Part shown: positions 14,384-43,161 of the stretch, piece after piece | Position numbering within the stretch: position 1 is the stretch's first letter | Layout of the letters: the number at the start of each line of letters is the position of its first letter | DNA from: an uncultured beta proteobacterium | Lineage (GTDB): Bacteria > Pseudomonadota > Gammaproteobacteria > Burkholderiales > JACQAP01 | Assembly (NCBI GenBank): GCA_963789945.1 | Contig: CAWBMN010000007.1 | Span: 27,178 to 91,177, forward strand | Reading direction: 5' to 3' | Length of the DNA stretch: 64,000 bases | Position numbers and translations under genes: made by a program | The notes under the pieces: model-generated | Database searches by the model: none | The model's input: only the letters and a program-made list of their open reading frames with translations | Told to the model about the DNA's origin: nothing

Positions 14384-15421
14384 TCAATGCTGTGAGAGCG
14401 CGCTCGAAAGCAGCTTGGCGGTGATGTCCACGATCGGGATCACGCGTTCGTAGGCCATGCGGGTGGGGCCGACCACACCCACCGTGCCGACCACCTGGCC
14501 GTCCACTTCGTAAGGCGCAGTCACCACGCTGCACTCGTCCAGAGGCACCAGGCCGGACTCGCCGCCGATGAAAATCTGCACGCCTTGCGCGCGGCTGCTG
14601 ATATCAAGGAGCTGCAACAGGCTGGTCTTCTGCTCGAACATGTCGAACAACCTCCTCAGGCTCGCCATGTTCGACGACAGATCCTGCACGTGCAGCAGGT
14701 TGTGCTCCCCGGAAAGCACGTAGTCCTCCGAGTTGTGGCTCATCACCTCGGTGCCGGCCTCGAGCGCCTGGGTCATGAGCCGCGTCATGTCCTCGCGCAG
14801 CTTGCGCAGTTCATCCTGGACGCGCACCTTGATCTCGTCGAAGGTCAGACCGGAGAAGTTCTGGTTAAGGAAATTGGCGCCTTCGACAAGTTCCGAGGGC
14901 TCGTACGCGCGATCGGTGAGGATGATGCGGTTCTGCACATCCCCGTCAGGGGCGACGATGATCAGCAGGATGCGCCTTTCCGACAGGCGCAGAAATTCGA
15001 TGTGGCGGAATGCAGCGCTCCTGCGCTTGGGCGTCATCACCACACCGGCGAAACGGGTGAGATCGGACAGCAGGTGCGAGGCCTGCAACACCAGTTTCTG
15101 CGTGTTGTCGGGTTGCAACTGGCCCTCGAGCTGATTGATCTCCATCTGGTCGAGCGGCCTGACCTTGAGCAGTGTGTCGACGAAGAAGCGGTAGCCACGC
15201 GGCGTCGGTATGCGGCCGGCCGAAGTGTGCGGGCTGGAGATGAATCCCAGTTCTTCGAGGTCCGCCATGATGTTGCGGATACTCGCCGGGCTCAGTTCGA
15301 GTCCGGAATACCTGGCGAGCGCTCGCGAACCGACCGGCTGCCCTTCGGCAATGTAGCGCTCCACCAGCATTTTCAGCAGGATCTGCGCGCGTTCGCTCGG
15401 CACGGAATCGTTCGTCGCCAT
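14384..15421 (-). CDS. hrcA: heat-inducible transcription repressor HrcA
   Basis: 345 aa. N-terminal winged HTH ([26 protein letters not shown]...[17 protein letters not shown]) and an HrcA C-terminal domain. Confidence 0.95.
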
Positions 15422-15518
15422 GTGGCTATTCTACAAAGCTTTTCGGCATCGAAGCAGCTTTCGTTGGGTGTTCCTGCGGAACCGGCGGTTCGGAGGGAAA
15501 TGTGCTTTAATTCCGGGC

Positions 15519-16391
15519 ATGTCGAGCGCATTCAAGACCATCGCACTGATCGGCAAGTACAAGAGCCCCGAGATCGCCGAGCCGCTTCTGCGGCTGGCGG
15601 ATTTCCTCAAGGGACGCGGCGTCAGGATCGTGCTCGATCCGCTGACGGCCGCGCACATCGGCAAGAACAATCACGCCGTGCTGCCGCTCGACGATGTCGG
15701 CCGGTCCGCCGAACTGGCCATCGTCATCGGCGGCGACGGCACCATGCTCAACATCGCGCGCACTTTCGCGCCTTACAACGTGGCGCTTGTGGGGATCAAC
15801 CAGGGGCGGCTCGGGTTTCTCACCGATCTGTCGATGGACACCATGTTCGAGACCATCGGCTCCATCCTCGATGGCAGCTTCATCACCGAATCGCGCATGT
15901 TGCTGCAGGCTGCGGTGTTGCGCGGCGAGCGCCAGGTGTTGGACGTGCTGGCATTCAATGACGTGTCGGTGAACAAGGGCGCGGAGGGCAGCCTGATCGA
16001 GATCGAAGTGCACATCGACGGACAATTTGTCTACAACCTGCGCTCGGACGGGCTGATCGTTGCCTCCCCCACCGGCTCGACCGCGTACGCGCTTTCTTCC
16101 GGCGGCCCGATTCTGCATCCCAGCCTGAACGTCATTGGCCTGGTCCCGGTCTGTCCGCACACGCTTTCGAACCGCCCGATCGTGGTGAGCAGCGAGTCGG
16201 TGATCGAAATCCTGATTCACAAGGCGGCGGACGCGCGCGCGCATTTCGACAGCCATTCGCACCACGAACTCCAGGAACGCGACAAGGTCATCGTGCGCCG
16301 ATGTCCGCACGCGATCCGCCTGCTCCATCCGCTGGGCCACAACTACTATCACATGCTCCGGGAAAAGCTCCATTGGAGCGAAACCCTGTAA
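15519..16391 (+). CDS. nadK: NAD(+) kinase
   Basis: Start taken at ATG 15519 (MSSAFKTIALIGKY, 290 aa). GGDGT motif (VIGGDGTMLN) and SPTGSTAYALSSGGPI. Confidence 0.9.
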   Translation: MSSAFKTIALIGKYKSPEIAEPLLRLADFLKGRGVRIVLDPLTAAHIGKNNHAVLPLDDVGRSAELAIVIGGDGTMLNIARTFAPYNVALVGINQGRLGFLTDLSMDTMFETIGSILDGSFITESRMLLQAAVLRGERQVLDVLAFNDVSVNKGAEGSLIEIEVHIDGQFVYNLRSDGLIVASPTGSTAYALSSGGPILHPSLNVIGLVPVCPHTLSNRPIVVSSESVIEILIHKAADARAHFDSHSHHELQERDKVIVRRCPHAIRLLHPLGHNYYHMLREKLHWSETL

Positions 16392-16401
16392 CGACGATCA
16401 G
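16386..16401 (+). promoter_or_regulatory. possible LexA (SOS) box upstream of recN
   Basis: CTGTAACGACGATCAG is CTGT-N8-TCAG, one mismatch from CTGT-N8-ACAG. It lies 27 nt upstream of the recN ATG and overlaps the nadK stop. Confidence 0.25.
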
Positions 16402-16427
16402 TCATCGCCGCCGGTTTTTCAGCAGCC

Positions 16428-18092
16428 ATGTTGCGCAGCCTCAGCATCCGCGACTTCGTAATCGTCGACAAGCTCGACCTCGAATTTCAGCCCGGCTTCA
16501 CCGTGCTGACCGGGGAAACCGGTGCCGGCAAGTCCATCCTGATCGACGCGCTGGCCGCGGTGCTGGGCAGCCGCGCCGAATCCGGGCAGGTCCGTGAAGG
16601 AAAAGACAAGACCGAAGTGAGCGCGGAATTCTCGATCGAGGAGGCGCCCACCGTTTCGGATTATCTGGCCGAAAATGATCTCGCCGGCGATGACGGCACG
16701 TGCCTGCTGCGCCGGGTGATCGAGTCTTCGGGCCGCTCGCGCGCGTACGTCAACGGCCGTCCGGCGACGGTGCTGCAGCTTAAGGAGATCGGCGAACTCC
16801 TGGTGGACATCCACGGCCAGCATGCTCATCAGTCGCTGCTGCGCGCGGGCGCGCAGCGCGACCTGCTGGACGGCTACGCCGGCGCCGCCGATCGGGCGCG
16901 CGAAGTTGCGGCGGCATTCCGCGCTTGGCAGGACATCCGGAGCCAGCGGCTGGCGCTGGATAGCGGTGCGCAAGCGCTGGAAGCCGAGCGCGAGCAACTG
17001 CAGTGGCAGGTGAAGGAACTTGATGCGCTCGGGTTCCGCGCCGAGGAATGGGAGGAACTGCAGGCGGAACACAAACGCCTCGCCCATGCCGCCAGCCTGA
17101 TCGAAGCGGTGCAGTTCAGTCTGGAGGTGCTGTCCGAAGGCGAGATGTCCACGCTTGCCGCAGTCGCTTCGGTGAATTCGCGCCTCGAGGGCATGACCGA
17201 TTTCGACCCGCAGTTGAAGGAAATTCTCTCTGCGCTCGAGCCGGCGCAGATCCAGTTGCAGGAGGCCGTCTACAGCCTGCGCCATTATCAGAGCCGCCTG
17301 GACCTGGACCCGCAGCGGCTGCGCGAGGTGGACGCCCGGCTCGACGCCGTGCACACGGCGTCGCGCAAATTCAGGGTAAGTCCGCCGGAGATGCCGGAAC
17401 ATCTGGCGAAAATGAAGGCGCGGCTCGCCGAACTGGAGGCCGGGTTCGACCCGGAAGCGCTGCGCCAGCGCGAGAGCGAGGCGCAAGCGCACTGGCAGGA
17501 ATGCGCGAAGAAGCTCTCTGCAGCACGCAAGAAATCCGCGGCGGATTTTACCAGGAGAGTTACCGCCTCGATGCAGGCGCTGGCGATGGGTGGCGGCGCA
17601 TTCGAGATTGCTCTGCATCCCCTGAGCGAAGCTACTGCACATGGCATGGAGCAGATCGAATTTCTGGTTGCCGGCCACGCCGGCGCTACGCCGCTGGCGC
17701 TGGCGAAGGTGGCCTCCGGTGGCGAACTCTCGCGCATAAGCCTGGCGATCCAGACCGTGACCAGCCAGGTGGCCGCCGTGCCGACGCTGATTTTCGACGA
17801 AGTGGATGCCGGCATCGGCGGGCGCGTCGCCGAAATCGTCGGCCGGATGCTCAGGGAACTCGGCAGCCGTCATCAGGTGATGTGCGTCACCCACCTGCCG
17901 CAAGTGGCCGCGGCCGCAAACCAGCAATGGCAAGTGAGCAAATCGGCGGCCAATGGCAAAGTGGCGAGCCAGGTGGCAGTGCTGGATCGTGCCTCCCGGG
18001 TCGAGGAAATTGCGCGCATGCTCGGCGGCGTGAAGATCACCGAAACCACGCGCAAGCACGCCGCGGAATTGCTCGGGTCCGGCGCGCGCTAG
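16428..18092 (+). CDS. recN: DNA repair protein RecN (SMC-like ATPase)
   Basis: 554 aa. Walker A GETGAGKS, long coiled-coil middle, signature SGGELSRISLAI and Walker B LIFDEVDAGIGG. Confidence 0.95.
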   Translation: MLRSLSIRDFVIVDKLDLEFQPGFTVLTGETGAGKSILIDALAAVLGSRAESGQVREGKDKTEVSAEFSIEEAPTVSDYLAENDLAGDDGTCLLRRVIESSGRSRAYVNGRPATVLQLKEIGELLVDIHGQHAHQSLLRAGAQRDLLDGYAGAADRAREVAAAFRAWQDIRSQRLALDSGAQALEAEREQLQWQVKELDALGFRAEEWEELQAEHKRLAHAASLIEAVQFSLEVLSEGEMSTLAAVASVNSRLEGMTDFDPQLKEILSALEPAQIQLQEAVYSLRHYQSRLDLDPQRLREVDARLDAVHTASRKFRVSPPEMPEHLAKMKARLAELEAGFDPEALRQRESEAQAHWQECAKKLSAARKKSAADFTRRVTASMQALAMGGGAFEIALHPLSEATAHGMEQIEFLVAGHAGATPLALAKVASGGELSRISLAIQTVTSQVAAVPTLIFDEVDAGIGGRVAEIVGRMLRELGSRHQVMCVTHLPQVAAAANQQWQVSKSAANGKVASQVAVLDRASRVEEIARMLGGVKITETTRKHAAELLGSGAR

Positions 18093-18103
18093 CGCGATCT
18101 GGA

Positions 18104-18856
18104 ATGGCCGCCGTGGAAGACACACTGGTTGTGCAGGCCGCCGACGCGGTCGAAGTCGGGTTGCCGGTTGCCGGCATAGGCAGCCGCAGCTACGCCTTCC
18201 TGATCGACTGGCACATCCGCTTACTTCTGGCGTTGGCCTGGCTGCTGCTGATCGCGGTGCTGCTTGGTCTATTGTCGCCGGCGGAGGAATTCTTCCGGCC
18301 TTTGCTGAATGCCGGCAAGCTGACCGTGTACGTGGCGTTGTTGCCGGCGGCGGCGATTTATTTTCTCTACCACCCCGTGCTCGAGATCGCGATGCAGGGC
18401 CGCACGCCGGGAAAGCGCATGGCGGGGATACGCATCGTCACCGAGCGCGCGCTGACTCCCGACGCCGGCGCGCTGATCATCCGCAACGTCTTCAGGCTGG
18501 TGGATTCGCTGCCGGCGTTCTATGTGCTCGGGCTGGTGGTGGCGATGTTAACCCCGCGCCAGGTGCGCATTGGCGACATTGCCGCCGGTACGCTGCTGGT
18601 TTACGACAGCGGCAAGGGCAAGCTCGATTTCGACGGTGTGATCGGCTCATCCACCTCACGGCTCTCGCCCGGCGATCGGGAGCTGCTGGACGATCTGCTC
18701 GAGCGCTGGCGCGGGCTCGAAGCGCCATTGCGCCGTGGCCTCGCGGAAAAATTCCTGGCGCGCATCGGCGAACCGGTGGCGGGCAACGATAGCGAGGCCG
18801 GGCTGCGCAAGCGCCTGCGCAAGCTCAGGGATGAGTCCCGTGGCAAACCGGCCTGA
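18104..18856 (+). CDS. RDD-family membrane protein
   Basis: Start at ATG 18104, 250 aa. YAFLIDWHIRLLL...GRTPGKRMAGIRIV...RNVFRLVD with about 3 TM segments. The ORF-track entry 17048..18856 fuses it to an out-of-frame read through recN. Confidence 0.75.
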   Translation: MAAVEDTLVVQAADAVEVGLPVAGIGSRSYAFLIDWHIRLLLALAWLLLIAVLLGLLSPAEEFFRPLLNAGKLTVYVALLPAAAIYFLYHPVLEIAMQGRTPGKRMAGIRIVTERALTPDAGALIIRNVFRLVDSLPAFYVLGLVVAMLTPRQVRIGDIAAGTLLVYDSGKGKLDFDGVIGSSTSRLSPGDRELLDDLLERWRGLEAPLRRGLAEKFLARIGEPVAGNDSEAGLRKRLRKLRDESRGKPA

Positions 18857-19838
18857 GGCCGCGCTCGCGGCCTGGCTCCAGGGACGCGCCGCGCAATGGC
18901 AGCGTCTGAGCCGGGCGCTCGCCGAGGTCAGCGCGCGCCGGCAGGCGGATTTGCCGCAATTGAAGGAACTGGTGAGCGGCTACCGCGCGCTCGCGCGCGA
19001 CGTGTCGCTGGTACGGGCTGCGGCGCCCGACGCCAGGCTGGTGGATCGGCTGGAAGCGCTGCTTACGCAGGCGCGCGAGGTGATCCACCGCAGACCGGGC
19101 AACGTTCGCGATGCCCTGACCGGTTTGTTTCGCGACGGCGCGGCGCGGGTGGCCTTCGAGTTGCGCGGGCGCATCGCCGCGGTCACGGCTCTTTTTCTCG
19201 CCAGTGCCGCGGCCGGCTGGTGGCTGGTGCACCGTTACCCGGAGCTGGCGGCGCTGTTCGCTTCCGAGCAGATGATCAACGGCGTGCAGCGCGGCGAACT
19301 CTGGACTGACGGATTGATCAACATTGTGCCCTCGGCGCTGCTGTCGCTGGGGATCATGAGCAACAACATCGTGGTTACGCTGTTCGCGTTTACGCTGGGT
19401 GCCCTGTACGGACTTGGCACGCTGTATATCGTCGGCATGAACGGGCTGATGCTGGGCGGGGTGTTTGCGCTGACGGCGCAGCACGGCCTGGCGGGCCGGC
19501 TTGCAGAGTTCGTGGTCGCGCACGGCATGGTCGAGATCTCTGTAATCCTGCTCGCCGCGGCGGTCGGAGTCGAGCTCGGAGAAGCCCTGGCGCGTCCGGG
19601 CAACCGCAGCCGGGCGCACGCGTTTCGCGAGGCTGTGCGCCGCGCCGGACAGTTGCTGCCGGTGTGCGTGGTCTTCCTGGTCGGCGCAGGACTGATCGAA
19701 GGATACGTTTCGCCCGATCCGCATTTCGCCATGGCGCAGCGCATTGCCATCGGTGTGGCCTATTGGCTGCTCCTGGTGCTGGTGCTCAGCGGCAGGCTGC
19801 GGCGGCGGCCACCCCGCCGCTCAGACCTGATGCTGTGA
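18831..19838 (+). CDS. SpoIIM/DUF95-like polytopic membrane protein
   Basis: Start taken at ATG 18831, overlapping the RDD gene by 26 nt. Hallmark IMSNNIVVTLFAFTLGALYGLGTLYIVGMNGLMLGG plus HGMVEISVILLAAA. Confidence 0.7.
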   Translation: MSPVANRPEAALAAWLQGRAAQWQRLSRALAEVSARRQADLPQLKELVSGYRALARDVSLVRAAAPDARLVDRLEALLTQAREVIHRRPGNVRDALTGLFRDGAARVAFELRGRIAAVTALFLASAAAGWWLVHRYPELAALFASEQMINGVQRGELWTDGLINIVPSALLSLGIMSNNIVVTLFAFTLGALYGLGTLYIVGMNGLMLGGVFALTAQHGLAGRLAEFVVAHGMVEISVILLAAAVGVELGEALARPGNRSRAHAFREAVRRAGQLLPVCVVFLVGAGLIEGYVSPDPHFAMAQRIAIGVAYWLLLVLVLSGRLRRRPPRRSDLML

Positions 19839-21116
19839 GCGCAGGGATTCGTAGGACCGCAGCACCGCGCGATCGAGCTGGGCCGGCACGGTTGTGACCG
19901 CTTGTGCGCCGCTGCGGCGCAGCCGCAGCGTCATGCCGCGCACCGACTGCAGCATTTCCGCGGCGGCAAACGCCTGGTAAGGATGGAGCCAGTGGCTGGA
20001 TTGCCGGTGGTGCAGCGACAGCGTGTCCTCATCCAGCGTGCCCGCGATCAGAGGCAGATGCTTGGGCGCCAGCAACTGCACGGCGCGCAACAACTGGGCG
20101 GGATCCTGGCTTTCGTCCACATCCGTGAGCAGCACCACCAGGCTGCGCTGATGCAGCAGGCGGCGCGCCAGCAGCGCGGCCGCCAGCGGGTTGGATTCGG
20201 AACCGACCGGGCGCGCCTGCTCGAGAATGCGGCGCACCCCGAGCAGCGCCGCTGCCCCATGTCCCGGCGGCAGCGCCGCCAGCGGACGCTCGGCAAACAC
20301 GATGATTCCGACGTGATCGCCGTTCAGGATCGCTCTTTCCGCCAGCCTGGCGGCAACGTTCACGTAGTGGTGCAGCCGGCTCAGCGTCCCGGCCTGAAGG
20401 TTCGAAGTCCTGCCTGCATCCAGCAGAACTAGCAGTTCCAGGTTGCGCTCCTCGCTGTGCAGGCGCACGGTATAACGCTGGCTGCGCGCGGTGGCTTTCC
20501 AGTCGATCGCCCGCATCGGATCGCCGGGCCGATAGTCACGCAATCCGATCAGTTCGAAGCCGGCGCCCGCGCTGCGTTGCGCCCGCTCGCCCTGGGGACG
20601 GGTGCCGGGCCCGCGCTCAGCACCGCGCAGCCGCGCCGGCACGACTTTCAGACGGTGCGCGATGTCGAACTTGCGGGACCACCACGCCAGTCCGAACATG
20701 CCGCGCGTGCGGGTGTAGACCGGCTGCCAGTCGAGCGTGCCCAGTTTCTGCGCCGTGAACGCAGAAGAATGCACTACGTCGCCGTGCGCCGGCACCGTGT
20801 AAGCGGCAATCGAGTCGCCGCCGCTCAGGCCGTTGGCAAAGACCTGTTGCAGTTCGACCCTGAGCGGCCGTTCGCCGTCGTTGCCGAGAACCAGGTCCGC
20901 AGTGGCCGGCTGGCCAAGCAAGACGCGCTCGGGAATGCCTGGCGAGATGCGGAGTCCGCGCCGCCGCGCGGCAATGCCTTCCAGCAGCAGCCCGATCAGC
21001 AGGCTCGCTGCCGGCACGCGCCACAAGTCTGGCCAGGGATCGTCCTGCCACTGGCCGACGATTCCGAGCAGCGTCACCGCCGCCGCGACCACATAAGACC
21101 GTGCGGTCAGGTTCAT
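19821..21116 (-). CDS. DUF58 (vWA-like) protein, membrane-anchored, MoxR partner
   Basis: 431 aa with two N-terminal TM segments. DUF58 core LRDYRPGDPMRAIDWKATARSQRYTVRLHSEE...LLVLLDAGR. The 3' end overlaps the convergent SpoIIM-like gene by 18 nt. Confidence 0.8.
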   Translation of the reverse strand: MNLTARSYVVAAAVTLLGIVGQWQDDPWPDLWRVPAASLLIGLLLEGIAARRRGLRISPGIPERVLLGQPATADLVLGNDGERPLRVELQQVFANGLSGGDSIAAYTVPAHGDVVHSSAFTAQKLGTLDWQPVYTRTRGMFGLAWWSRKFDIAHRLKVVPARLRGAERGPGTRPQGERAQRSAGAGFELIGLRDYRPGDPMRAIDWKATARSQRYTVRLHSEERNLELLVLLDAGRTSNLQAGTLSRLHHYVNVAARLAERAILNGDHVGIIVFAERPLAALPPGHGAAALLGVRRILEQARPVGSESNPLAAALLARRLLHQRSLVVLLTDVDESQDPAQLLRAVQLLAPKHLPLIAGTLDEDTLSLHHRQSSHWLHPYQAFAAAEMLQSVRGMTLRLRRSGAQAVTTVPAQLDRAVLRSYESLRSQHQV

Positions 21117-21153
21117 CCCGGAGAGCCAGATCCGGATGAAGGTGTGCGGCGTC

Positions 21154-22104
21154 TCACTCGCGCGGTACCTTGACGCTGTCGAGGATGCTTTGTGCGACCT
21201 GAAGGTCGCCGACCCCTTCGAGCGCAGCGTCCGGGGTCAGCATCAGGCGGTGCGGCAGAACGAAGCGGGCCATGGCCTTGACGTCGTCGGGCGCGACGAA
21301 TTCCGCGTCGCGCAGTGCCGCCGCAATGCGGGCGCAACGCATCAGCGCCAGCGCACCGCGGGTGGACAGGCCCAGGTTGATCTGGGAGTGGTTGCGGCTG
21401 GCGGCGGCGATGTCGGTGACGTAGCCGTAGATCGCCTCGGACACATGCACTTTTGCGACTTGCGCGCGCGCCAGAGCCAGGGCATCGCCGGCGAGCGGGG
21501 TGATCGGCGCAGTCGCGTTGAAGTGCCCGCCGCGCAGGTCGTAGGTGCGCAGCACCTTGTGCTCCATCGCCGCCGCCGGATAGTCCACGTCTAGCCGCAT
21601 CAGGAAGCGGTCGAGCTGCGACTCGGGAAGCGGAAAGGTGCCCTCGAAATCGCGCGGGTTCTGGGTCGCGATGACCAGGAAGTCCTGCGGCAGGCTGTAG
21701 GTCTTGCGGTCGATGGTGACCTGGAACTCCTCCATTGCCTGAAGCAGTGCCGACTGGGTCTTCGGCCCGGAGCGGTTGATCTCGTCGACCAGCACGATGC
21801 TGGCGAACAGCGGTCCCGGGACGAACTCGAACTTTTTCTCCTCGCGGCTGAAGATGTGGATGCCGGTGATGTCCGAGGGCATCAGGTCGGCGGTGCATTG
21901 CACGCGGTTGAAGCTGCCGCCGAGCGCCGCTGCGACCGATTTCGCCAGCAGGGTCTTGCCGATGCCGGGCACGCCCTGCAGCAACACGTGGCCGCCGGCG
22001 ATCAGCCCGATGCACAGTCCGTGTATGACCTGGTCCATGCCGAACACCACGGTTTCCAGTTGAGTGCGCAGTTGCTGTTCGAGGCTGGAAGCGGGATTGC
22101 TCAT
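21154..22104 (-). CDS. MoxR-family AAA+ ATPase
   Basis: 316 aa. Walker A LLQGVPGIGKT, Walker B VLVDEINR, and ATQNP...G.F.LPE.QLDRF typical of MoxR/AAA_3. Confidence 0.9.
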   Translation of the reverse strand: MSNPASSLEQQLRTQLETVVFGMDQVIHGLCIGLIAGGHVLLQGVPGIGKTLLAKSVAAALGGSFNRVQCTADLMPSDITGIHIFSREEKKFEFVPGPLFASIVLVDEINRSGPKTQSALLQAMEEFQVTIDRKTYSLPQDFLVIATQNPRDFEGTFPLPESQLDRFLMRLDVDYPAAAMEHKVLRTYDLRGGHFNATAPITPLAGDALALARAQVAKVHVSEAIYGYVTDIAAASRNHSQINLGLSTRGALALMRCARIAAALRDAEFVAPDDVKAMARFVLPHRLMLTPDAALEGVGDLQVAQSILDSVKVPRE

Positions 22105-23369
22105 TGCAGGTGTTTCCTTATGCTGTTGATGAGGTTGTTCAGGCGTACCAGGTCGGGCGTGCGCCCCTGCGCAAGCCCGGCGTGCATTGCCCTCAGTTCG
22201 TCGATCCGGTTGCGCGGCACGCGCGGGTAACGTGCCAGCAGTTCCCAGTCAATGGCGTCTGCGCCGGAACCGGCGCCGCGCACCTCCGCGAAAAAGTGGC
22301 GCAGCAGACCCAGCGCGACCTCGCGGCCGGCCAGGCGCCTTGCGAACAGTCCGCCCACCGCGCGCACGAAGTCCACGGCACGCGGCAGCTCGGGCGGCCG
22401 AATCAGCGGGGCGATGCGGTTGCTGCGCCCAACAATATAGATGAGCCAGAAGCCGACGATGAACCACAGCGTGGCGTGCAGTCGCGCGTCGCCGAAGAAC
22501 GCACTCGGGTCGTAGACTTCGGTCAGGCCCTGATGCATGTCGTCGAAAATCACCCAGCCGTCCGCGCCCAGCGAACCGGCCACGATGTTGGCCAGCAGGC
22601 GCGCGTTGTCGCCAGCGCCGAGGGTGGCGTTGCCGAACAGGTCGGCGTAGCCGCTGATCCAGCCGGTGCCCTCGCCGATGCGCACTTGCCAGAACGCCGG
22701 AGATCGCGCCAAAGGATCGTCGAGCAATGCCAGACTGGTGCGGAATTTTTCCTTCGACTTGAGCGCCAGAGGATAGAGTAAATTCGTGCGCACCTGCACC
22801 TCTTGCACTGCCTTCAGGACCGGGTGTGGGCCGCGGGGAATCAGTCTGCGTGGCCGAGGCCGGCCATCCTTGTCGAGTTGCAACTGTGCCGTGGCTGCGT
22901 CCCCGGACTCTTCCGCCTGATCGCCTTCCGGGTCCGCGAATTCCAGGCTGAATCCGAGCGCGGCCGGCATGCCTGGTGGCTGCGCGAGGCGAAGCTGCGG
23001 CTGTGCGAAAACCTCCATGCTGCCGTCGAGCACCAGCACCGCATTGCCGCGCTCGATCCAGTCTTTCAACGCGTCGATTTCCAGTTGCCGTGCCGGCAGG
23101 GTCTGCGGCAACGTCAAAATCATGAGATTGCCGCGTTCCGGCAGGCCCGCATCTGCCGGCAGCCGGTCGTAGCGGCTGCGCAGGCTCCTGACGCGGATGC
23201 CGCTTGACTCGATCCAGGATTGCAGGCCCCGAAGCCCGCGGCTGCCACGGTCCGCGGTCGTCGGCATGGATTCCGGCGCGGTATCGGGTTCACGCGGGCC
23301 GATCAGGAGCACGAACACCAGGTACACGGCAGCCAGCGCGCCGAGCAGAGTGACGAGGCGCTCTTTCAT
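22101..23369 (-). CDS. DUF4350-like membrane protein
   Basis: Start at ATG 23369 (MKERLVTLLGALAAVYLVFVLL, a TM anchor), 422 aa. Contains an extracytoplasmic domain and a second TM (LWFIVGFWLIYIV). ATGA overlaps with both neighbours. Family call is from memory of the architecture and neighbourhood. Confidence 0.5.
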   Translation of the reverse strand: MKERLVTLLGALAAVYLVFVLLIGPREPDTAPESMPTTADRGSRGLRGLQSWIESSGIRVRSLRSRYDRLPADAGLPERGNLMILTLPQTLPARQLEIDALKDWIERGNAVLVLDGSMEVFAQPQLRLAQPPGMPAALGFSLEFADPEGDQAEESGDAATAQLQLDKDGRPRPRRLIPRGPHPVLKAVQEVQVRTNLLYPLALKSKEKFRTSLALLDDPLARSPAFWQVRIGEGTGWISGYADLFGNATLGAGDNARLLANIVAGSLGADGWVIFDDMHQGLTEVYDPSAFFGDARLHATLWFIVGFWLIYIVGRSNRIAPLIRPPELPRAVDFVRAVGGLFARRLAGREVALGLLRHFFAEVRGAGSGADAIDWELLARYPRVPRNRIDELRAMHAGLAQGRTPDLVRLNNLINSIRKHLQ

Positions 23370-24367
23370 CGGGGTGCCGCGCCGGCTGCTGGCGTGCCGA
23401 CGATGGCGTGCGCAGCCTGGTGCAGCGGCGCAAGCTGGGCCGCCACCACCAACCGGTTGCCGAACAATACCGCATCGGCCGCTGCAGCCAGCTCGGCAAA
23501 AGCTGCGGCATGAGCACGCGCCGCAGCGCCGAGCCGTGCCAGCATTTCCCTGTTGGTAAGGCTCTGGTCGTCCGGTAGCAGGCCACGCTCGATCAGTTCC
23601 TGCAGCACCAGACGCAGCAGTGCCGCCGGTTGTTGGGCGGGAGGAAGATTGGTCACGTCTTTCCAGGCGAGTTTGGCGGCACCGGCGGCGGCCGGCACGC
23701 GGCCGGCGCGTTGCATTCGGCTTCGTCGCTGCAGCCACGTCGACAGATTGGCCGTGCGCAACTCGTTGACCACGACCGCCAGCGCCAGCAGCAGTATCAC
23801 AGCCACGCTGGCGCGCAGGATGAGGTCCGCAAGCCACTCCGGGGGGTCCAGCGACTTGAGGAATTGTGTCAGCCACCGGTAGTCAGATTCTCCGCTGCCG
23901 CGCAGCTTTTGCGCCAGCCAGTCCTTGAATCGTTGCCACCAGGAAACCGGCGGCTTGGGTTCCACTTCCAGCGTGCGCGCCAGCAGTTCCGGCAGCGCCG
24001 CAAGATCGAATCGCTCTACGCCGGCAGGCGGGCTTCGAAAAGAGCCCAGCAGCGCGCGCAGGTCGCGAAGCTGGTCAGGGGTGGTTTGCAAATCGAGGGG
24101 TTGGCTCAATGAACCTGCGGCCGGCAATGCTGCAACCGACTGTGCGAGCCCGGGACAGACTTCTTCCAGAATCAGGCGCCGGTAAGGCGGTACCGGCTCG
24201 GCCCCGGCGTTGAGCGTACTGAGGCACCGATCCAAGCGCCGGCCGATTTCATCTGCGCGGGCATCGGCGTCCGCTGAAGCCCGCGCGACCGGCAGCGCCA
24301 GCGCGCTGAACAACAGGCCGAGCAGTAAGAAACAGCGGCGCGCCGCGTCAGGCCATCCGCGCCGCAA
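23366..24367 (-). CDS. DUF4129-like membrane protein
   Basis: 333 aa with a TTG start. Signal peptide (CFLLLGLLFSALALPVARA), central TM (ASVAVILLLALAVVV), and a C-terminal LPDDQSLTNREML...AADAVLFG resembling DUF4129. Confidence 0.5.
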   Translation of the reverse strand: MRRGWPDAARRCFLLLGLLFSALALPVARASADADARADEIGRRLDRCLSTLNAGAEPVPPYRRLILEEVCPGLAQSVAALPAAGSLSQPLDLQTTPDQLRDLRALLGSFRSPPAGVERFDLAALPELLARTLEVEPKPPVSWWQRFKDWLAQKLRGSGESDYRWLTQFLKSLDPPEWLADLILRASVAVILLLALAVVVNELRTANLSTWLQRRSRMQRAGRVPAAAGAAKLAWKDVTNLPPAQQPAALLRLVLQELIERGLLPDDQSLTNREMLARLGAAARAHAAAFAELAAAADAVLFGNRLVVAAQLAPLHQAAHAIVGTPAAGAAPR

Positions 24368-25112
24368 GATCGTGACCTTCCTTCCTCAATTTCAGATCGT
24401 GGTACTGCACGATCATGATCGAGTAGATCAGGGGTGCGGTGATGCCGCCGATCGCGGCTTCAACCAGGCTTACCGTAATCAATGCGTCGCTCGAGGCCTT
24501 GCCTTCCGACATGACCAGAGTGACGCCAAAAACAATCATGAGGCCGATGTATAGAATCATCACGATGACCACCGGGACGGAAACCACGGTCAGCGTGCGC
24601 CACCAGTTGCCCCAGACCAGCCGGTGGCTGCGCTTGAGCGAAGCCAGCGCCGATTCCCCGTCGAGGACGATGGCGAAAAACCCGAACGACAGGCTCAGCG
24701 ACAGGATGATGCCGGGGATGACGAGCAATATCAGGCCGCCGGCCATTGCAAGTAAGTACAGGATGGCTGCGCCGATGAGCGAGAGTACGCACTGGACGCC
24801 CCGAGCCAGCGCCTGTCCGGCGCTTGCCTCGTGCATGCCGGCCGCGGCGCCGAGCCGGTAAACAACTGCGCCGATCAGGATCATGTAGATCGGCAGCGCC
24901 ACCAGGAAGACGACCAGAACAGTCGATCCGGGTATCGGACTTTCGGTCGTTTCGGGGCCGTTCATGAGGACGTTGGCGATGTTCGGGATTGCGAGCACCA
25001 CAGCCGCCGCCAGTGACAAAGGAAAAACGCCGGCAAATGCCTTGACGAACAACTTGAAACCGCTGTCGAGTACCCTGCCTATGGTCTGCGGTTCACTCGC
25101 GAGTGCCACCAT
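24348..25112 (-). CDS. polytopic (about 6 TM) membrane protein with a C-terminal YHDLKLRKEGHDL motif
   Basis: Start taken at ATG 25112, with GGGGGA 5 nt upstream. Hydrophobic segments throughout. The C-terminal Y.DL..RKEG.DL tail recurs in a family of uncharacterised membrane domains. Confidence 0.6.
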   Translation of the reverse strand: MVALASEPQTIGRVLDSGFKLFVKAFAGVFPLSLAAAVVLAIPNIANVLMNGPETTESPIPGSTVLVVFLVALPIYMILIGAVVYRLGAAAGMHEASAGQALARGVQCVLSLIGAAILYLLAMAGGLILLVIPGIILSLSLSFGFFAIVLDGESALASLKRSHRLVWGNWWRTLTVVSVPVVIVMILYIGLMIVFGVTLVMSEGKASSDALITVSLVEAAIGGITAPLIYSIMIVQYHDLKLRKEGHDLAARMA

Positions 25113-25234
25113 GTCTGTCCCCCAAGTGTGGTTGCGACGAAATTCCACGGCCCGAACGAACGTCCGCGGCCGCTCCCGCCGTCATGGCGGATGCCCGTTC
25201 CGGAAAGCGACCGGCATTCGCCGGATTCGCAGTT

Positions 25235-25666
25235 TCAGGATTTGTTCCGGTTCGGACAGTCGGCCTTGATGCAGTCGGCATACAACTGCAACGAATGCTC
25301 GTGGATGGTGAAGCCGCGGTCCTTGGCGATCCTGACCTGGCGACGCTCGATTTCCGGATCGTAGAACTCCTCGACCTGTCCGCATTGGATGCAGACCAGG
25401 TGATCGTGGTGGCCGCCCTGGTTGAGTTCGAATACCGCCTTGCCGGATTCGAAATGGTGGCGGATCAGGATGCCCGCCTGCTCGAACTGGGTGAGCACCC
25501 GGTAGATGGTTGCCAATCCGATCTCCATGCCTTCCTTCATCAGCATCTTGTAGACGTCCTCGGCGGTGAGGTGGCGCACGTCGCTGTTCTCGAACAGGTC
25601 GAGAATCTTCAGGCGGGGTAGTGTGGCCTTCAGTCCGATGTTCTTGAGATCGTGCGGTGTGGTCAT
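25235..25666 (-). CDS. fur: ferric uptake regulator
   Basis: Start at ATG 25666, 143 aa. [15 protein letters not shown]...LSAEDVY-type HTH, HHDHLVC..CG and EF.D metal sites. Confidence 0.9.
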
Positions 25667-25687
25667 GACAGGACTGACAGGAAAGGG

Positions 25688-25706
25688 TTGGTGAATTATC
25701 ATAGCG
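25688..25706 (-). promoter_or_regulatory. weak Fur-box-like site upstream of fur
   Basis: Minus-strand GCTATGATAATTCACCAAC contains ATGATAAT, the core of GATAATGATAATCATTATC. Only about 10/19 bases match. Confidence 0.3.
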
Positions 25707-25769
25707 GCTTTCAAACCACTTGGATACCGCGTCCGGACGCCGTTGCCGCCGGATGACGCTGCTCACTTC

Positions 25770-26959
<1,190 letters not shown>

Positions 26960-26975
26960 GCATGTTGGCGCCGCG

Positions 26976-27004
26976 TTGAACCGCGCCGTGCCTTCCTCTA
27001 TAAT
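26976..27004 (+). promoter_or_regulatory. sigma-70 promoter of carAB
   Basis: TTGAAC (26976-26981), 17-nt spacer, TATAAT (26999-27004). Confidence 0.55.
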
Positions 27005-27018
27005 GCGCGCTCACAATG

Positions 27019-27050
27019 AAAGCGGGAGGGGCGTGTGCCTCTCCCGCTTT
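27019..27050 (+). promoter_or_regulatory. strong leader hairpin at the 5' end of the carA transcript
   Basis: AAGCGGGAGGGG - cgtgtg - CCTCTCCCGCTT is a 12-bp stem including one G:T, followed only by TTTCC. It starts about 10 nt after the predicted TSS. Confidence 0.4.
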
Positions 27051-27096
27051 CCATATGTAGAGTACCCTTCCAACCCGCGCTTCCCGGGAGTCCTAC

Positions 27097-28236
27097 TTGC
27101 CTGCGCCCGACCGTCAGCCTGCCGTCCTAGTGCTCGCCGACGGCACGATTTTCCGGGGCATTTCCATTGGTGCGCAGACACACACCGCCGGCGAGGTCGT
27201 GTTCAACACCGCAATCACCGGCTACCAGGAAATCCTCACCGATCCGTCCTATTGCCGGCAGATCGTCACCCTGACGTATCCGCACATCGGCAACGTCGGT
27301 GTCAATCCGGAAGACATTGAATCCGCCAAGGTCTTTGTCGCGGGGCTGGTGATTCGCGACCTGCCGGTGCTTGCCAGCAACTTCCGCCGCACACAGGACC
27401 TGTCCGACTATCTCAAGGCGCAGGGCATCGCGGCGATCGCCGGCATCGATACCCGCAAGCTCACCCGCATCCTGCGTGAGAAAGGTGCGCAAAACGGTTG
27501 CCTGATGGGCGGCCGGGTAGACGAGGCGTTGGCGCTGAAGGAAGCGCGCGCCTTTCCCGGGTTGGCCGGCATGGACCTGGCGAAAGTGGTGAGTTGCTCC
27601 AAATCCTACGAATGGAACCAGACCGACTGGGCGCTGGGCAAAGGTTACGGCTCCCGGCCCGCGCAGACATATCACGTCGTGGCGTACGACTACGGCATCA
27701 AGTACAACATTCTGCGCAAACTCGCCGGCCGCGGCTGCCGCCTGACCGTACTGCCGGCACAGGCGTCCGCGGAACAGGCGATGGCACTCAATCCCGACGG
27801 AATTTTTCTGTCCAACGGTCCGGGCGATCCCGAGCCCTGCGATTACGCCATCAAGGCCATTCGCAAGGTTCTCGACGCCGGCGTGCCGACGTTCGGCATC
27901 TGCCTCGGCCACCAGTTGCTCGGACTGGCCAGCGGTGCAAGGACCGTCAAGATGAAATTCGGTCATCACGGTGCCAACCATCCGGTGCAGGACCTCGACA
28001 GCGGACGGGTGATGATTACCAGCCAGAATCACGGCTTCGCAGTGGACGCCGGGACGCTGCCGGCTAACATCAGGGTGACGCACGTATCGCTGTTTGACGG
28101 CAGCCTGCAGGGATTCGAGCGCACCGACAAGCCGGCGTTCTGCTTCCAGGGCCATCCCGAAGCCAGCCCCGGTCCGCACGACGTCGACTACCTGTTCGAC
28201 CGCTTCATCGGCCTGATGCAAAAGCGGCACAGGTAG
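27097..28236 (+). CDS. carA: carbamoyl-phosphate synthase small (glutaminase) subunit
   Basis: 379 aa with a TTG start. [12 protein letters not shown], and the GATase triad region GICLGHQLL...HGANHPV. Confidence 0.95.
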
Positions 28237-28237
28237 A

Positions 28238-28427
28238 TTTCACCACAGAGATTCACTTCTATACCCCCTTGAGGGGTACACCGAGACACAGAGGAAACCT
28301 GGAGAGACAAATTAGAGCCGTGAGAAATGAAGAAATCGAGATCGGGAAACGCGCGCATTTGCAGGTGTCTTGTTTTCCGATTCTTACGATTTTCTCCGTA
28401 CCTCTGTGTCTCTGTGGTTGATTCACA
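28238..28427. repeat. IR4: about 190-nt long imperfect palindrome (CACAGAG family) filling the carA-carB spacer
   Basis: Outer arms CACCACAGAGATTCAC / ACACCGAGACACAGAGG (left) pair with CCTCTGTGTCTCTGTGGTTGATTCAC (right). Inner arms GAGAAATGAAGAAATCGAGATCGGGAAAC pair with GTTTTCCGATTCTTACGATTTTCTC. It ends 1 nt before the carB ATG. Confidence 0.7.
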
Positions 28428-31634
<3,207 letters not shown>

Positions 31635-43076: not shown

Positions 43077-43161
43077 GCCGACGTGGTGAAATTGGTAGAC
43101 ACGCCATCTTGAGGGGGTGGTGGGGTAACCCGTGGGAGTTCGAGTCTCCCCGTCGGCACCA
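43077..43161 (+). tRNA. leuU: tRNA-Leu (anticodon GAG), type II with a long variable arm, CCA encoded
   Basis: Acceptor GCCGACG/CGTCGGC. D-arm GTGGTGAAATTGGTAGACAC. Anticodon stem-loop CCATC-TTGAGGG-GGTGG. T-arm GGGAG-TTCGAGT-CTCCC, 3' ACCA. Same secG-tRNA-Leu linkage as in E. coli. Confidence 0.9.

Follow-up and report, generated by a model that had tools for sequence, protein, structure and literature searches.

In a 64,000-nucleotide stretch of DNA from an uncultured beta proteobacterium (contig CAWBMN010000007.1; hereafter the window), a module of seven genes at positions 18104-25112 encodes a MoxR-type AAA+ ATPase and six proteins with predicted membrane association. Orthologs of these genes recur with the same order and strands in 80 species-level genomes, and we tentatively propose that their products form one membrane-embedded machine driven by the ATPase. 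The RDD and SpoIIM-like genes on the forward strand converge on five reverse-strand genes (the five-gene arm). The seven genes, and the overlap between the two arms, are as follows.

18104-18856, forward strand: RDD gene, 250 amino acids
18831-19838, forward strand: SpoIIM-like gene, 335 amino acids
19821-19838, 18 nucleotides: convergent overlap of the 3' ends of the SpoIIM-like and DUF58 genes, read from the sequence
19821-21116, reverse strand: DUF58 gene, 431 amino acids
21154-22104, reverse strand: MoxR gene, 316 amino acids
22101-23369, reverse strand: DUF4350 gene, 422 amino acids
23366-24367, reverse strand: DUF4129 gene, 333 amino acids, with a TTG start and GGAAGGAAGG ahead of the start codon
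24348-25112, reverse strand: gene of a polytopic (YciC-like) membrane protein, 254 amino acids, the first gene of the five-gene arm

Within the five-gene arm, ATGA overlaps join the DUF4350 and MoxR genes (22101-22104) and the DUF4129 and DUF4350 genes (23366-23369), the YciC-like and DUF4129 genes overlap by 20 nucleotides (24348-24367), and the DUF58 gene lies downstream of the MoxR gene after a gap of 37 nucleotides (21117-21153). On the forward strand, the ATG of the SpoIIM-like gene creates a 26-nucleotide overlap with the stop region of the RDD gene. A first-pass annotation of the window had described the seven open reading frames (ORFs) with their strands, the 18-nucleotide convergent overlap, the two ATGA overlaps, the 20-nucleotide overlap and the 37-nucleotide gap, and each of these was confirmed in the sequence. 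Because the window is GC-rich, spurious long ORFs (up to 602 amino acids) also occur in other frames across the module genes and the neighbouring recN gene (16419-18125 and 21113-22015 and 22101-23876 on the reverse strand, 17048-18856 on the forward strand). These alternative-frame and antisense ORFs are high-GC artefacts, not genes, and the reading frames of the module genes were chosen on homology.

To compare the module across genomes, a profile of DUF4350 homologues was used to select 155 species-representative genomes, from which 80 loci were kept, and orthologs in these loci were detected by tblastn with the seven window proteins. All 80 loci come from metagenome-assembled genomes (MAGs), with no cultured isolate among them. 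Most belong to Gammaproteobacteria in the GTDB sense, including Burkholderiales, Steroidobacteraceae, Woeseiaceae and Granulosicoccaceae, and Nitrospirales, Binatia, Krumholzibacteriia and Thermodesulfobacteriota contribute one locus each. A MoxR ortholog was detected in all 80 loci, a YciC-like ortholog in 72, DUF58 and DUF4129 orthologs in 70 each, a SpoIIM-like ortholog in 65 and an RDD ortholog in 64, the last always adjoining the SpoIIM-like gene. The order and the strands of the module genes were unchanged throughout, and the complete set of seven was present in 50 loci, nearly all of the gaps being contig ends. The arrangement is far beyond chance, since the same order and strands recur in 80 species-level genomes. 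The seven families are inherited together as a unit in a fixed order, and the genes are strongly co-conserved.

The junctions between the genes were also conserved. At both the DUF4129 to DUF4350 and the DUF4350 to MoxR junctions, overlaps of 4 nucleotides or 1 nucleotide were found in 88-89% of loci; in about 88% of species, translation is coupled at these two junctions of the operon. The DUF58 gene adjoins the MoxR gene in 70 of the 80 loci, and the others are cut by contig ends, except for L060. Where the spacing between the convergent SpoIIM-like and DUF58 genes could be measured (61 loci), their 3' ends overlap by 4-77 nucleotides in 34. The RDD/SpoIIM-like pair lies on the opposite side of the operon, upstream of the YciC-like gene, in L066, L074, L076 and L077, and in L011, L017 and L056 it is set apart from the DUF58 gene by an insert of 1.7-3.4 kb of unrelated DNA; in all seven of these loci the pair is still beside the operon. 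In the DUF4129 slot, tblastn missed the ortholog in L023, L034, L062, L076 and L078, where a divergent signal-peptide protein of about 300 amino acids was found instead. This protein forms a cluster of its own from six loci (for example, L023:6343-7263), which explains six apparent absences. Independent gene calls with Pfam labels for the locus L081 gave the same seven-gene layout, with no Pfam match on record for the gene in the DUF4129 slot.

When all other ORFs of the 80 loci were clustered, no eighth conserved gene was found, the most frequent family occurring in 10 of the 80. Together with the fixed set of seven, this makes the module a complete, self-contained unit. In an exhaustive search, the DUF4350 subfamily to which the window protein belongs comprised about 389 clusters at 50% identity (E <= 1e-30), and the wider family about 3,020 clusters.

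The six Pfam families named in the first-pass annotation (RDD, SpoIIM, DUF58, AAA_3/MoxR, DUF4350 and DUF4129) were all matched above the gathering score. The MoxR protein matched AAA_3 with 195.9 bits (cut-off 27) and AAA_lid_2 with 76.4 bits, and its nearest solved structure was 2r44 (E = 5.8e-64). Its Walker A motif (GxPGxGKT, G44-T51) and Walker B residues (D107 and E108) were conserved to at least 95% across 72 sequences, and the remaining AAA+ motifs were likewise kept; as judged from these motifs, the ATPase site is shown to be intact. A weak hydrophobic stretch in this protein corresponds to the AAA+ core strand beside Walker A and not to a transmembrane (TM) segment, and MoxR is predicted to be the only fully soluble cytoplasmic component of the module. 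According to Snider and Houry, as quoted in PMC12067865, the MoxR-proper subfamily is recognised by an adjacent DUF58 gene, and the MoxR gene in the window has such a neighbour.

The DUF58 protein, which is presumed to be the adaptor of MoxR, matched its Pfam family with 94.7 bits (cut-off 23.4), and the VWA_2 model reached 23.4 bits, under its cut-off of 27. A TM hairpin at the N-terminus (residues 5-21 and 34-50) is followed by a stretch with five lysine or arginine residues among 15, so that the body of the protein is predicted to be cytoplasmic. In the slot of the metal-ion-dependent adhesion site (MIDAS), D233-A-G235-R236-[TAS]-S238 was found in 69-70 of 70 orthologs, and T331-D332 was kept. 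This slot differs from the canonical DxSxS of the von Willebrand factor A (vWA) MIDAS by an invariant arginine where a metal-coordinating serine is expected.

The DUF4350 protein (Pfam 49.1 bits, cut-off 30.4) has hydropathy-based TM segments at 8-24 and 297-313. Its AlphaFold2 model (mean predicted local distance difference test score, pLDDT, 85.2) shows an N-terminal anchor, an alpha/beta domain at about 45-280, a second TM segment (TM2) at about 297-317 and a helical domain at about 331-421 (about 105 amino acids). The alpha/beta domain is predicted to be periplasmic and the C-terminal helical domain cytoplasmic. The best Foldseek match in the PDB was the N-terminal domain of IFT52 (5fms, E = 4e-6), with the GH42 trimerisation domain and GATase1/ThuA-like folds next in rank, and the modelled domain has the GldG/GIFT-like flavodoxin-type fold. 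This agrees with the link between DUF4350 and GldG previously reported from HHpred (PMC5898192). GldG works with the GldA/GldF ATP-binding cassette (ABC) transporter, and IFT52 with intraflagellar transport; neither is coupled to MoxR. Just before TM2, on the predicted periplasmic side, the residues F275-D-D-x-H-Q-G281, Y286-D287, D294 and R296 were invariant or nearly so. The FDDxHQG motif is specific to this DUF4350 subfamily, and the acidic/histidine cluster could be a cation or ligand site.

In the DUF4129 protein, the Pfam match (32.4 bits, cut-off 24.8) spans only the C-terminal 70 or so residues. Among 10 diverse orthologs, three scored above the cut-off, five had DUF4129 as their best or only match below the threshold and two had no match. 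The window protein consists of a signal peptide (ARA|SA), a helical domain with Cys48 and Cys71, a TM segment at 183-199 and the DUF4129 domain at 251-318; the domain with the cysteine pair is predicted to be periplasmic and the DUF4129 domain cytoplasmic. It is only in this predicted periplasmic domain that a conserved cysteine pair occurs. This is the least conserved and fastest-evolving component (23-36% identity), with only C48, C71, E202, T271 and E274 at least 95% conserved, and its AlphaFold2 model was unusable (pLDDT 46), the alignment being limited to homologues of at least 71% identity. TgpA-type transglutaminases, which are partners of MoxR and DUF58, likewise end in a DUF4129 domain. 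A cluster of MoxR, DUF58 and a transglutaminase is mentioned for bifidobacteria in PMC12067865. As a side observation, the database holds a cluster 100% identical to the DUF4129 protein of the window (P0149), and the best match of the neighbouring DUF4350 protein is 97% identical.

The remaining three proteins are polytopic. In the RDD protein (Pfam 55.1 bits, cut-off 24.1, covering model positions 1-136 of 137), three TM segments are followed by an extension at the C-terminus with the conserved residues R201, W202 and R210; its side of the membrane is uncertain from hydropathy and charge. The SpoIIM-like protein matched PF01944 with 112.3 bits (cut-off 26.9) and carries an arginine-rich soluble N-terminal domain of about 115 amino acids, predicted to be cytoplasmic, together with the conserved motifs NNIxV, AHGxVE and IEGxxSP. 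Identity with the sporulation protein itself was rejected: the NCBIfam equivalog TIGR02831 scored 16.6 bits against a cut-off of 100.2, so the name SpoIIM-like is valid at the family level only. The SpoIIM-like ortholog of L081 (11574-12545) has a weak precomputed match to PF28475 (DUF8413) roughly ahead of SpoIIM; the window protein had no match to PF28475 at E <= 0.01.

The sixth membrane protein was assigned tentatively, through its orthologs. The window protein had only sub-threshold matches to DUF7847, GPDPase_memb and UPF0259/YciC (17.9-18.8 bits against about 29-31), and scored 22.5 against 227 for the NCBIfam YciC model. All 10 of the orthologs analysed matched the group of YciC/UPF0259, GPDPase_memb, DUF7847 and DUF975 and nothing else, two of them above the cut-off (L009, GPDPase_memb 35.7 against 29.6; L021, UPF0259 32.5 against 31.4), and the L081 ortholog has precomputed Pfam matches to UPF0259 and DUF7847. 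Six TM segments are predicted, with both ends cytoplasmic, and a WWR loop (170-172) and a C-terminal tail (D239..R243..G246xD248..R252) are conserved.

Taken together, each of the six products other than the ATPase carries a signal peptide or TM segments by hydropathy, in agreement with the earlier reading, and every product except MoxR is membrane-anchored. Profile searches for solved relatives of these six proteins gave matches at the chance level only. We infer that the DUF58 body, the DUF4129 domain, the DUF4350 tail and the SpoIIM-like N-terminal domain lie on the MoxR side of the membrane, and that only two domains, the GIFT domain of DUF4350 and the cysteine-pair domain of the DUF4129 protein, are periplasmic. 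The idea of the first-pass annotation that a cytoplasmic AAA+ motor services a membrane complex is consistent with this predicted topology, and is kept here as a suggestion.

The module is a genuine and strongly conserved unit, and it is not of a new kind, being already visible in well-studied genomes. A table in PMC8191103 lists six of the seven families, by annotation, on the consecutive locus tags Rv3689-Rv3695 (M. tuberculosis) and MAB_0386c-0392c (M. abscessus), and M. chelonae is covered as well. At this mycobacterial moxR2 locus, the annotations give a membrane protein (Rv3689), DUF4350 (Rv3691), MoxR (Rv3692), DUF58 (Rv3693), a SpoIIM-like protein (Rv3694c) and an RDD protein (Rv3695), whereas Rv3690, in the DUF4129 slot, is unnamed in the table. 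The locus differs in belonging to another phylum with another envelope, and, judging from the suffixes of the tabulated locus tags, in having divergent RDD and SpoIIM genes, which are co-directional in the window. Expression of the mycobacterial module drops as a block, together with glpFK, in an M. chelonae double lysogen (PMC8191103), and a published peak list of chromatin immunoprecipitation sequencing (ChIP-seq) has a strong CRP peak at Rv3689.

The core of the module had also been described. Makarova, Galperin and Koonin (2015) predicted that DUF4350, MoxR and a vWA protein form the core of a secretion or membrane-remodelling complex, and noted bacterial SpoIIM homologues beside a vWA protein and a COG0714 ATPase (PMC5898192). 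Their archaeal arCOG01314 system resembles the module in having DUF4350 (with a signal or anchor, a GldG-like extracytoplasmic domain and a C-terminal TM segment), a COG0714 MoxR and a vWA/DUF58 protein, and the DUF4350 protein of the window has the same architecture of N-terminal signal or anchor, large extracytoplasmic domain and C-terminal TM segment, plus the added helical domain. In contrast, the archaeal system includes membrane proteins of the immunoglobulin-like/S-layer type (COG4743/pfam07760), none of which was found by Pfam in the window module, and its vWA protein is predicted to be secreted, whereas the DUF58 body of the window is predicted to be cytoplasmic; RDD, DUF4129 and the YciC-like protein are outside the archaeal description (PMC5898192). 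The novelty implied by the first-pass annotation was therefore overstated, given this core and the six families on consecutive tags in the mycobacterial table. Its statement that the module has no assigned substrate or phenotype holds in the literature searched, where no published function, substrate or phenotype for the module was found; apart from the comparative genomics of 2015, the searches brought up only transcriptome tables and the list of ChIP-seq peaks.

Other MoxR systems are more distant. The Bat/BatI operons of Bacteroides, Borrelia, Leptospira and Rhizobium share a broadly conserved MoxR and DUF58 core followed by several membrane proteins; in PMC5700661 an aerotolerance complex is proposed, an envelope-integrity phenotype appears in the title of a Rhizobium study, and the function is unsettled. 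These operons have BatA/BatB proteins with a periplasmic-MIDAS vWA domain, TPR and SH3 domains and BatD, none of which was detected by Pfam in the window module, which has DUF4350, DUF4129, YciC-like, SpoIIM-like and RDD proteins instead. NorQ/NorD, RavA/ViaA and CbbQ/CbbO likewise combine a MoxR-class AAA+ hexamer with a vWA-type partner, and, in PMC9976466 and PMC13036017, the vWA protein plugs the ring with a finger in the AAA+ pore and ATP drives the remodelling of a linker. Pairs of the NorQ/NorD type have a defined enzyme as their target, whose gene is usually close by, whereas no client is linked to the module in the 80 loci; moreover, NorD requires an intact vWA domain, whereas the DUF58 protein of the window has the DxGRxS slot and is itself membrane-anchored. 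The SpoIIM of the Bacillus SpoIID/SpoIIM/SpoIIP engulfment complex belongs to the same Pfam family (PF01944) as the window protein; it is a polytopic scaffold in the membrane, to which extracytoplasmic partners are recruited (PMC5898192). The window protein has the extra N-terminal domain, and there is no SpoIID or SpoIIP in the module.

With a probability of roughly 45%, we consider that the products of the seven genes form a single machine, embedded in the membrane and powered by the MoxR AAA+ ring. By analogy with the solved MoxR/vWA pairs such as NorQ/NorD, a MoxR hexamer would grip the DUF58 adaptor, and ATP hydrolysis would pull or twist it. The adaptor could then remodel the cytoplasmic tails of the bitopic DUF4350 and DUF4129 proteins and so alter the state or the assembly of their two periplasmic domains, while the SpoIIM-like, RDD and YciC-like polytopic proteins would serve as the membrane platform. 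The output is likely to be the assembly or gating of an envelope structure, that is, envelope remodelling or secretion, and the maturation of a specific linked enzyme is probably not the role, because no client enzyme is linked to the module. The same role was predicted independently from the archaeal DUF4350, MoxR and vWA genes (PMC5898192), and the joint change in expression of the mycobacterial counterpart (PMC8191103) also speaks for the proposal. A more specific version seems rather unlikely to us: that the seven proteins form a physical trans-membrane machine, characterised in no organism, in which MoxR acts through the membrane-tethered DUF58 adaptor and, by way of the single-pass DUF4350 and DUF4129 proteins, performs conformational work across the inner membrane so as to assemble, gate or export an envelope component. 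If this were true, an envelope or secretion apparatus of a new, AAA+-powered class would exist, common to Proteobacteria and Actinobacteria and with an archaeal cousin.

Several results weigh against the proposal of a single machine. No shared docking domain was found among the soluble extensions in an all-against-all hhalign comparison of the DUF4350 C-terminus, the N- and C-terminal parts of the DUF4129 protein, the RDD C-terminus, the SpoIIM N-terminus, the N-terminal region of DUF58 and the YciC-like N-terminus (top probability 19.8%). No substrate, secreted cargo or enzyme was linked to the module in the 80 loci. Since the MIDAS slot of DUF58 is DxGRxS and not DxSxS, canonical metal-mediated target binding may not apply. 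In three loci, L013, L018 and L060, neither an RDD nor a SpoIIM gene lies in the 7-10 kb or so around the DUF4350 gene (about 10 kb for L013 and L018), so both of these components may be accessory. Finally, the topology was derived from hydropathy and charge (the positive-inside rule) only.

Among the alternatives, the module may be a chaperone inserting a cofactor or metal into an unlinked membrane or periplasmic enzyme, with the membrane proteins delivering or holding the metal. It would then resemble NorQ/NorD, which serves NO reductase, or the MoxR-type system of methanol dehydrogenase. Metal insertion is a frequent role of the characterised MoxR/vWA pairs in PMC9976466 and PMC13036017, and the invariant cluster of D276, D277, H279, D287 and D294 near the membrane in DUF4350 could bind a cation. 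However, no client enzyme gene is conserved beside the module in the 80 genomes, the flanking genes are unrelated housekeeping genes, and the MIDAS slot of DUF58 is non-canonical, all of which make this role unlikely.

It is also quite unlikely that the module serves transport or ion homeostasis, with the RDD, SpoIIM-like and YciC-like proteins as a transporter, the GldG-like domain as an accessory as in GldAFG, and MoxR regulating the assembly. The module does contain three polytopic proteins, and the DUF4350 domain does resemble GldG/GIFT. One RDD protein is reportedly a cation/proton antiporter. Nevertheless, no ABC ATPase or permease genes were found in or near the module by Pfam and by the clustering of neighbours in the 80 loci, a solute-binding fold was not detected, and a role in transport is not established for any of the three polytopic families.

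The RDD/SpoIIM-like pair and the five-gene MoxR operon might instead be two independent neighbours, as their opposite strands, the four relocations and three insertions of the pair and its absence from the 10 kb or so around the DUF4350 gene of L013 and L018 could suggest. Against this, the pair is adjacent in 64-65 of the 80 loci, that is, on nearly every contig reaching that far, despite a complete turnover of the other neighbours, and even a relocated pair still adjoins the operon. The same pairing is listed for mycobacteria in the table of PMC8191103, and the linkage of SpoIIM, vWA and ATPase genes was also noted by Makarova et al. (PMC5898192). We regard two separate units as decidedly unlikely.

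That the module serves conflict or defence against phage, like the MoxR-vWA systems of Kaur et al. (2020), is nearly excluded: conflict systems with MoxR-vWA cores exist (PMC7159879) and MoxR has a secondary Pfam match to bpMoxR (40.7 bits), but PADLOC found no family for the six partners and only weak P-loop-level matches for MoxR, Pfam detected no beta-propeller, effector or sensor domain in the seven proteins, the setting is a housekeeping one with a gene content stable across species, and none of 72,556 plasmids was matched by the DUF4350 protein in a tblastn search.

Few AAA+ systems are as widespread as the MoxR/vWA pairs, and clients are known for only a few of these pairs. The module appears to match a locus of M. 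tuberculosis and M. abscessus that has been unexplained since those genomes were sequenced. Solving its function would give roles at once to six families whose functions are poorly known or unknown (DUF58, DUF4350, DUF4129, a non-sporulation SpoIIM, RDD and YciC-like proteins), and would test whether a novel system for secretion or membrane remodelling exists, as was predicted ten years ago. Since all 80 loci are from MAGs, this DUF4350 subfamily is currently without an obvious genetic model. The copy in the window has no special twist, and nothing in it would surprise a specialist: it is functional dark matter with a testable architecture. Its value is as a clean example, with a topology map, conserved motifs and the finding that there is no eighth gene.

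The module lies in housekeeping surroundings (14384-31634), in the order hrcA (reverse), nadK (forward), recN (forward), the module, fur (reverse), bamE, dapB, carA and carB (all forward). Its immediate neighbours are as follows.

16428-18092, forward strand: recN, one flank of the module
25235-25714, reverse strand: fur, the other flank of the module

The recN and fur flanks are common only to the five or six closest relatives (L001-L006), and the neighbours in other lineages differ. The guanine-plus-cytosine (GC) content is 66-68% over the module (18001-24000) against about 61-65% in the flanking 2-kb bins, which may be a simple reflection of membrane proteins rich in alanine, leucine and arginine. 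Promoter-like sites (1 against 1.0 in shuffled sequences) and terminator-like sites (7 against 5.9) were in no excess over the shuffled expectation, and no Rfam family reached the threshold anywhere in the 64-kb window. The sole tRNA gene of the window encodes tRNA-Leu with the anticodon GAG (43077-43161). The nearest homologues come from MAGs labelled 'Burkholderiales bacterium'.

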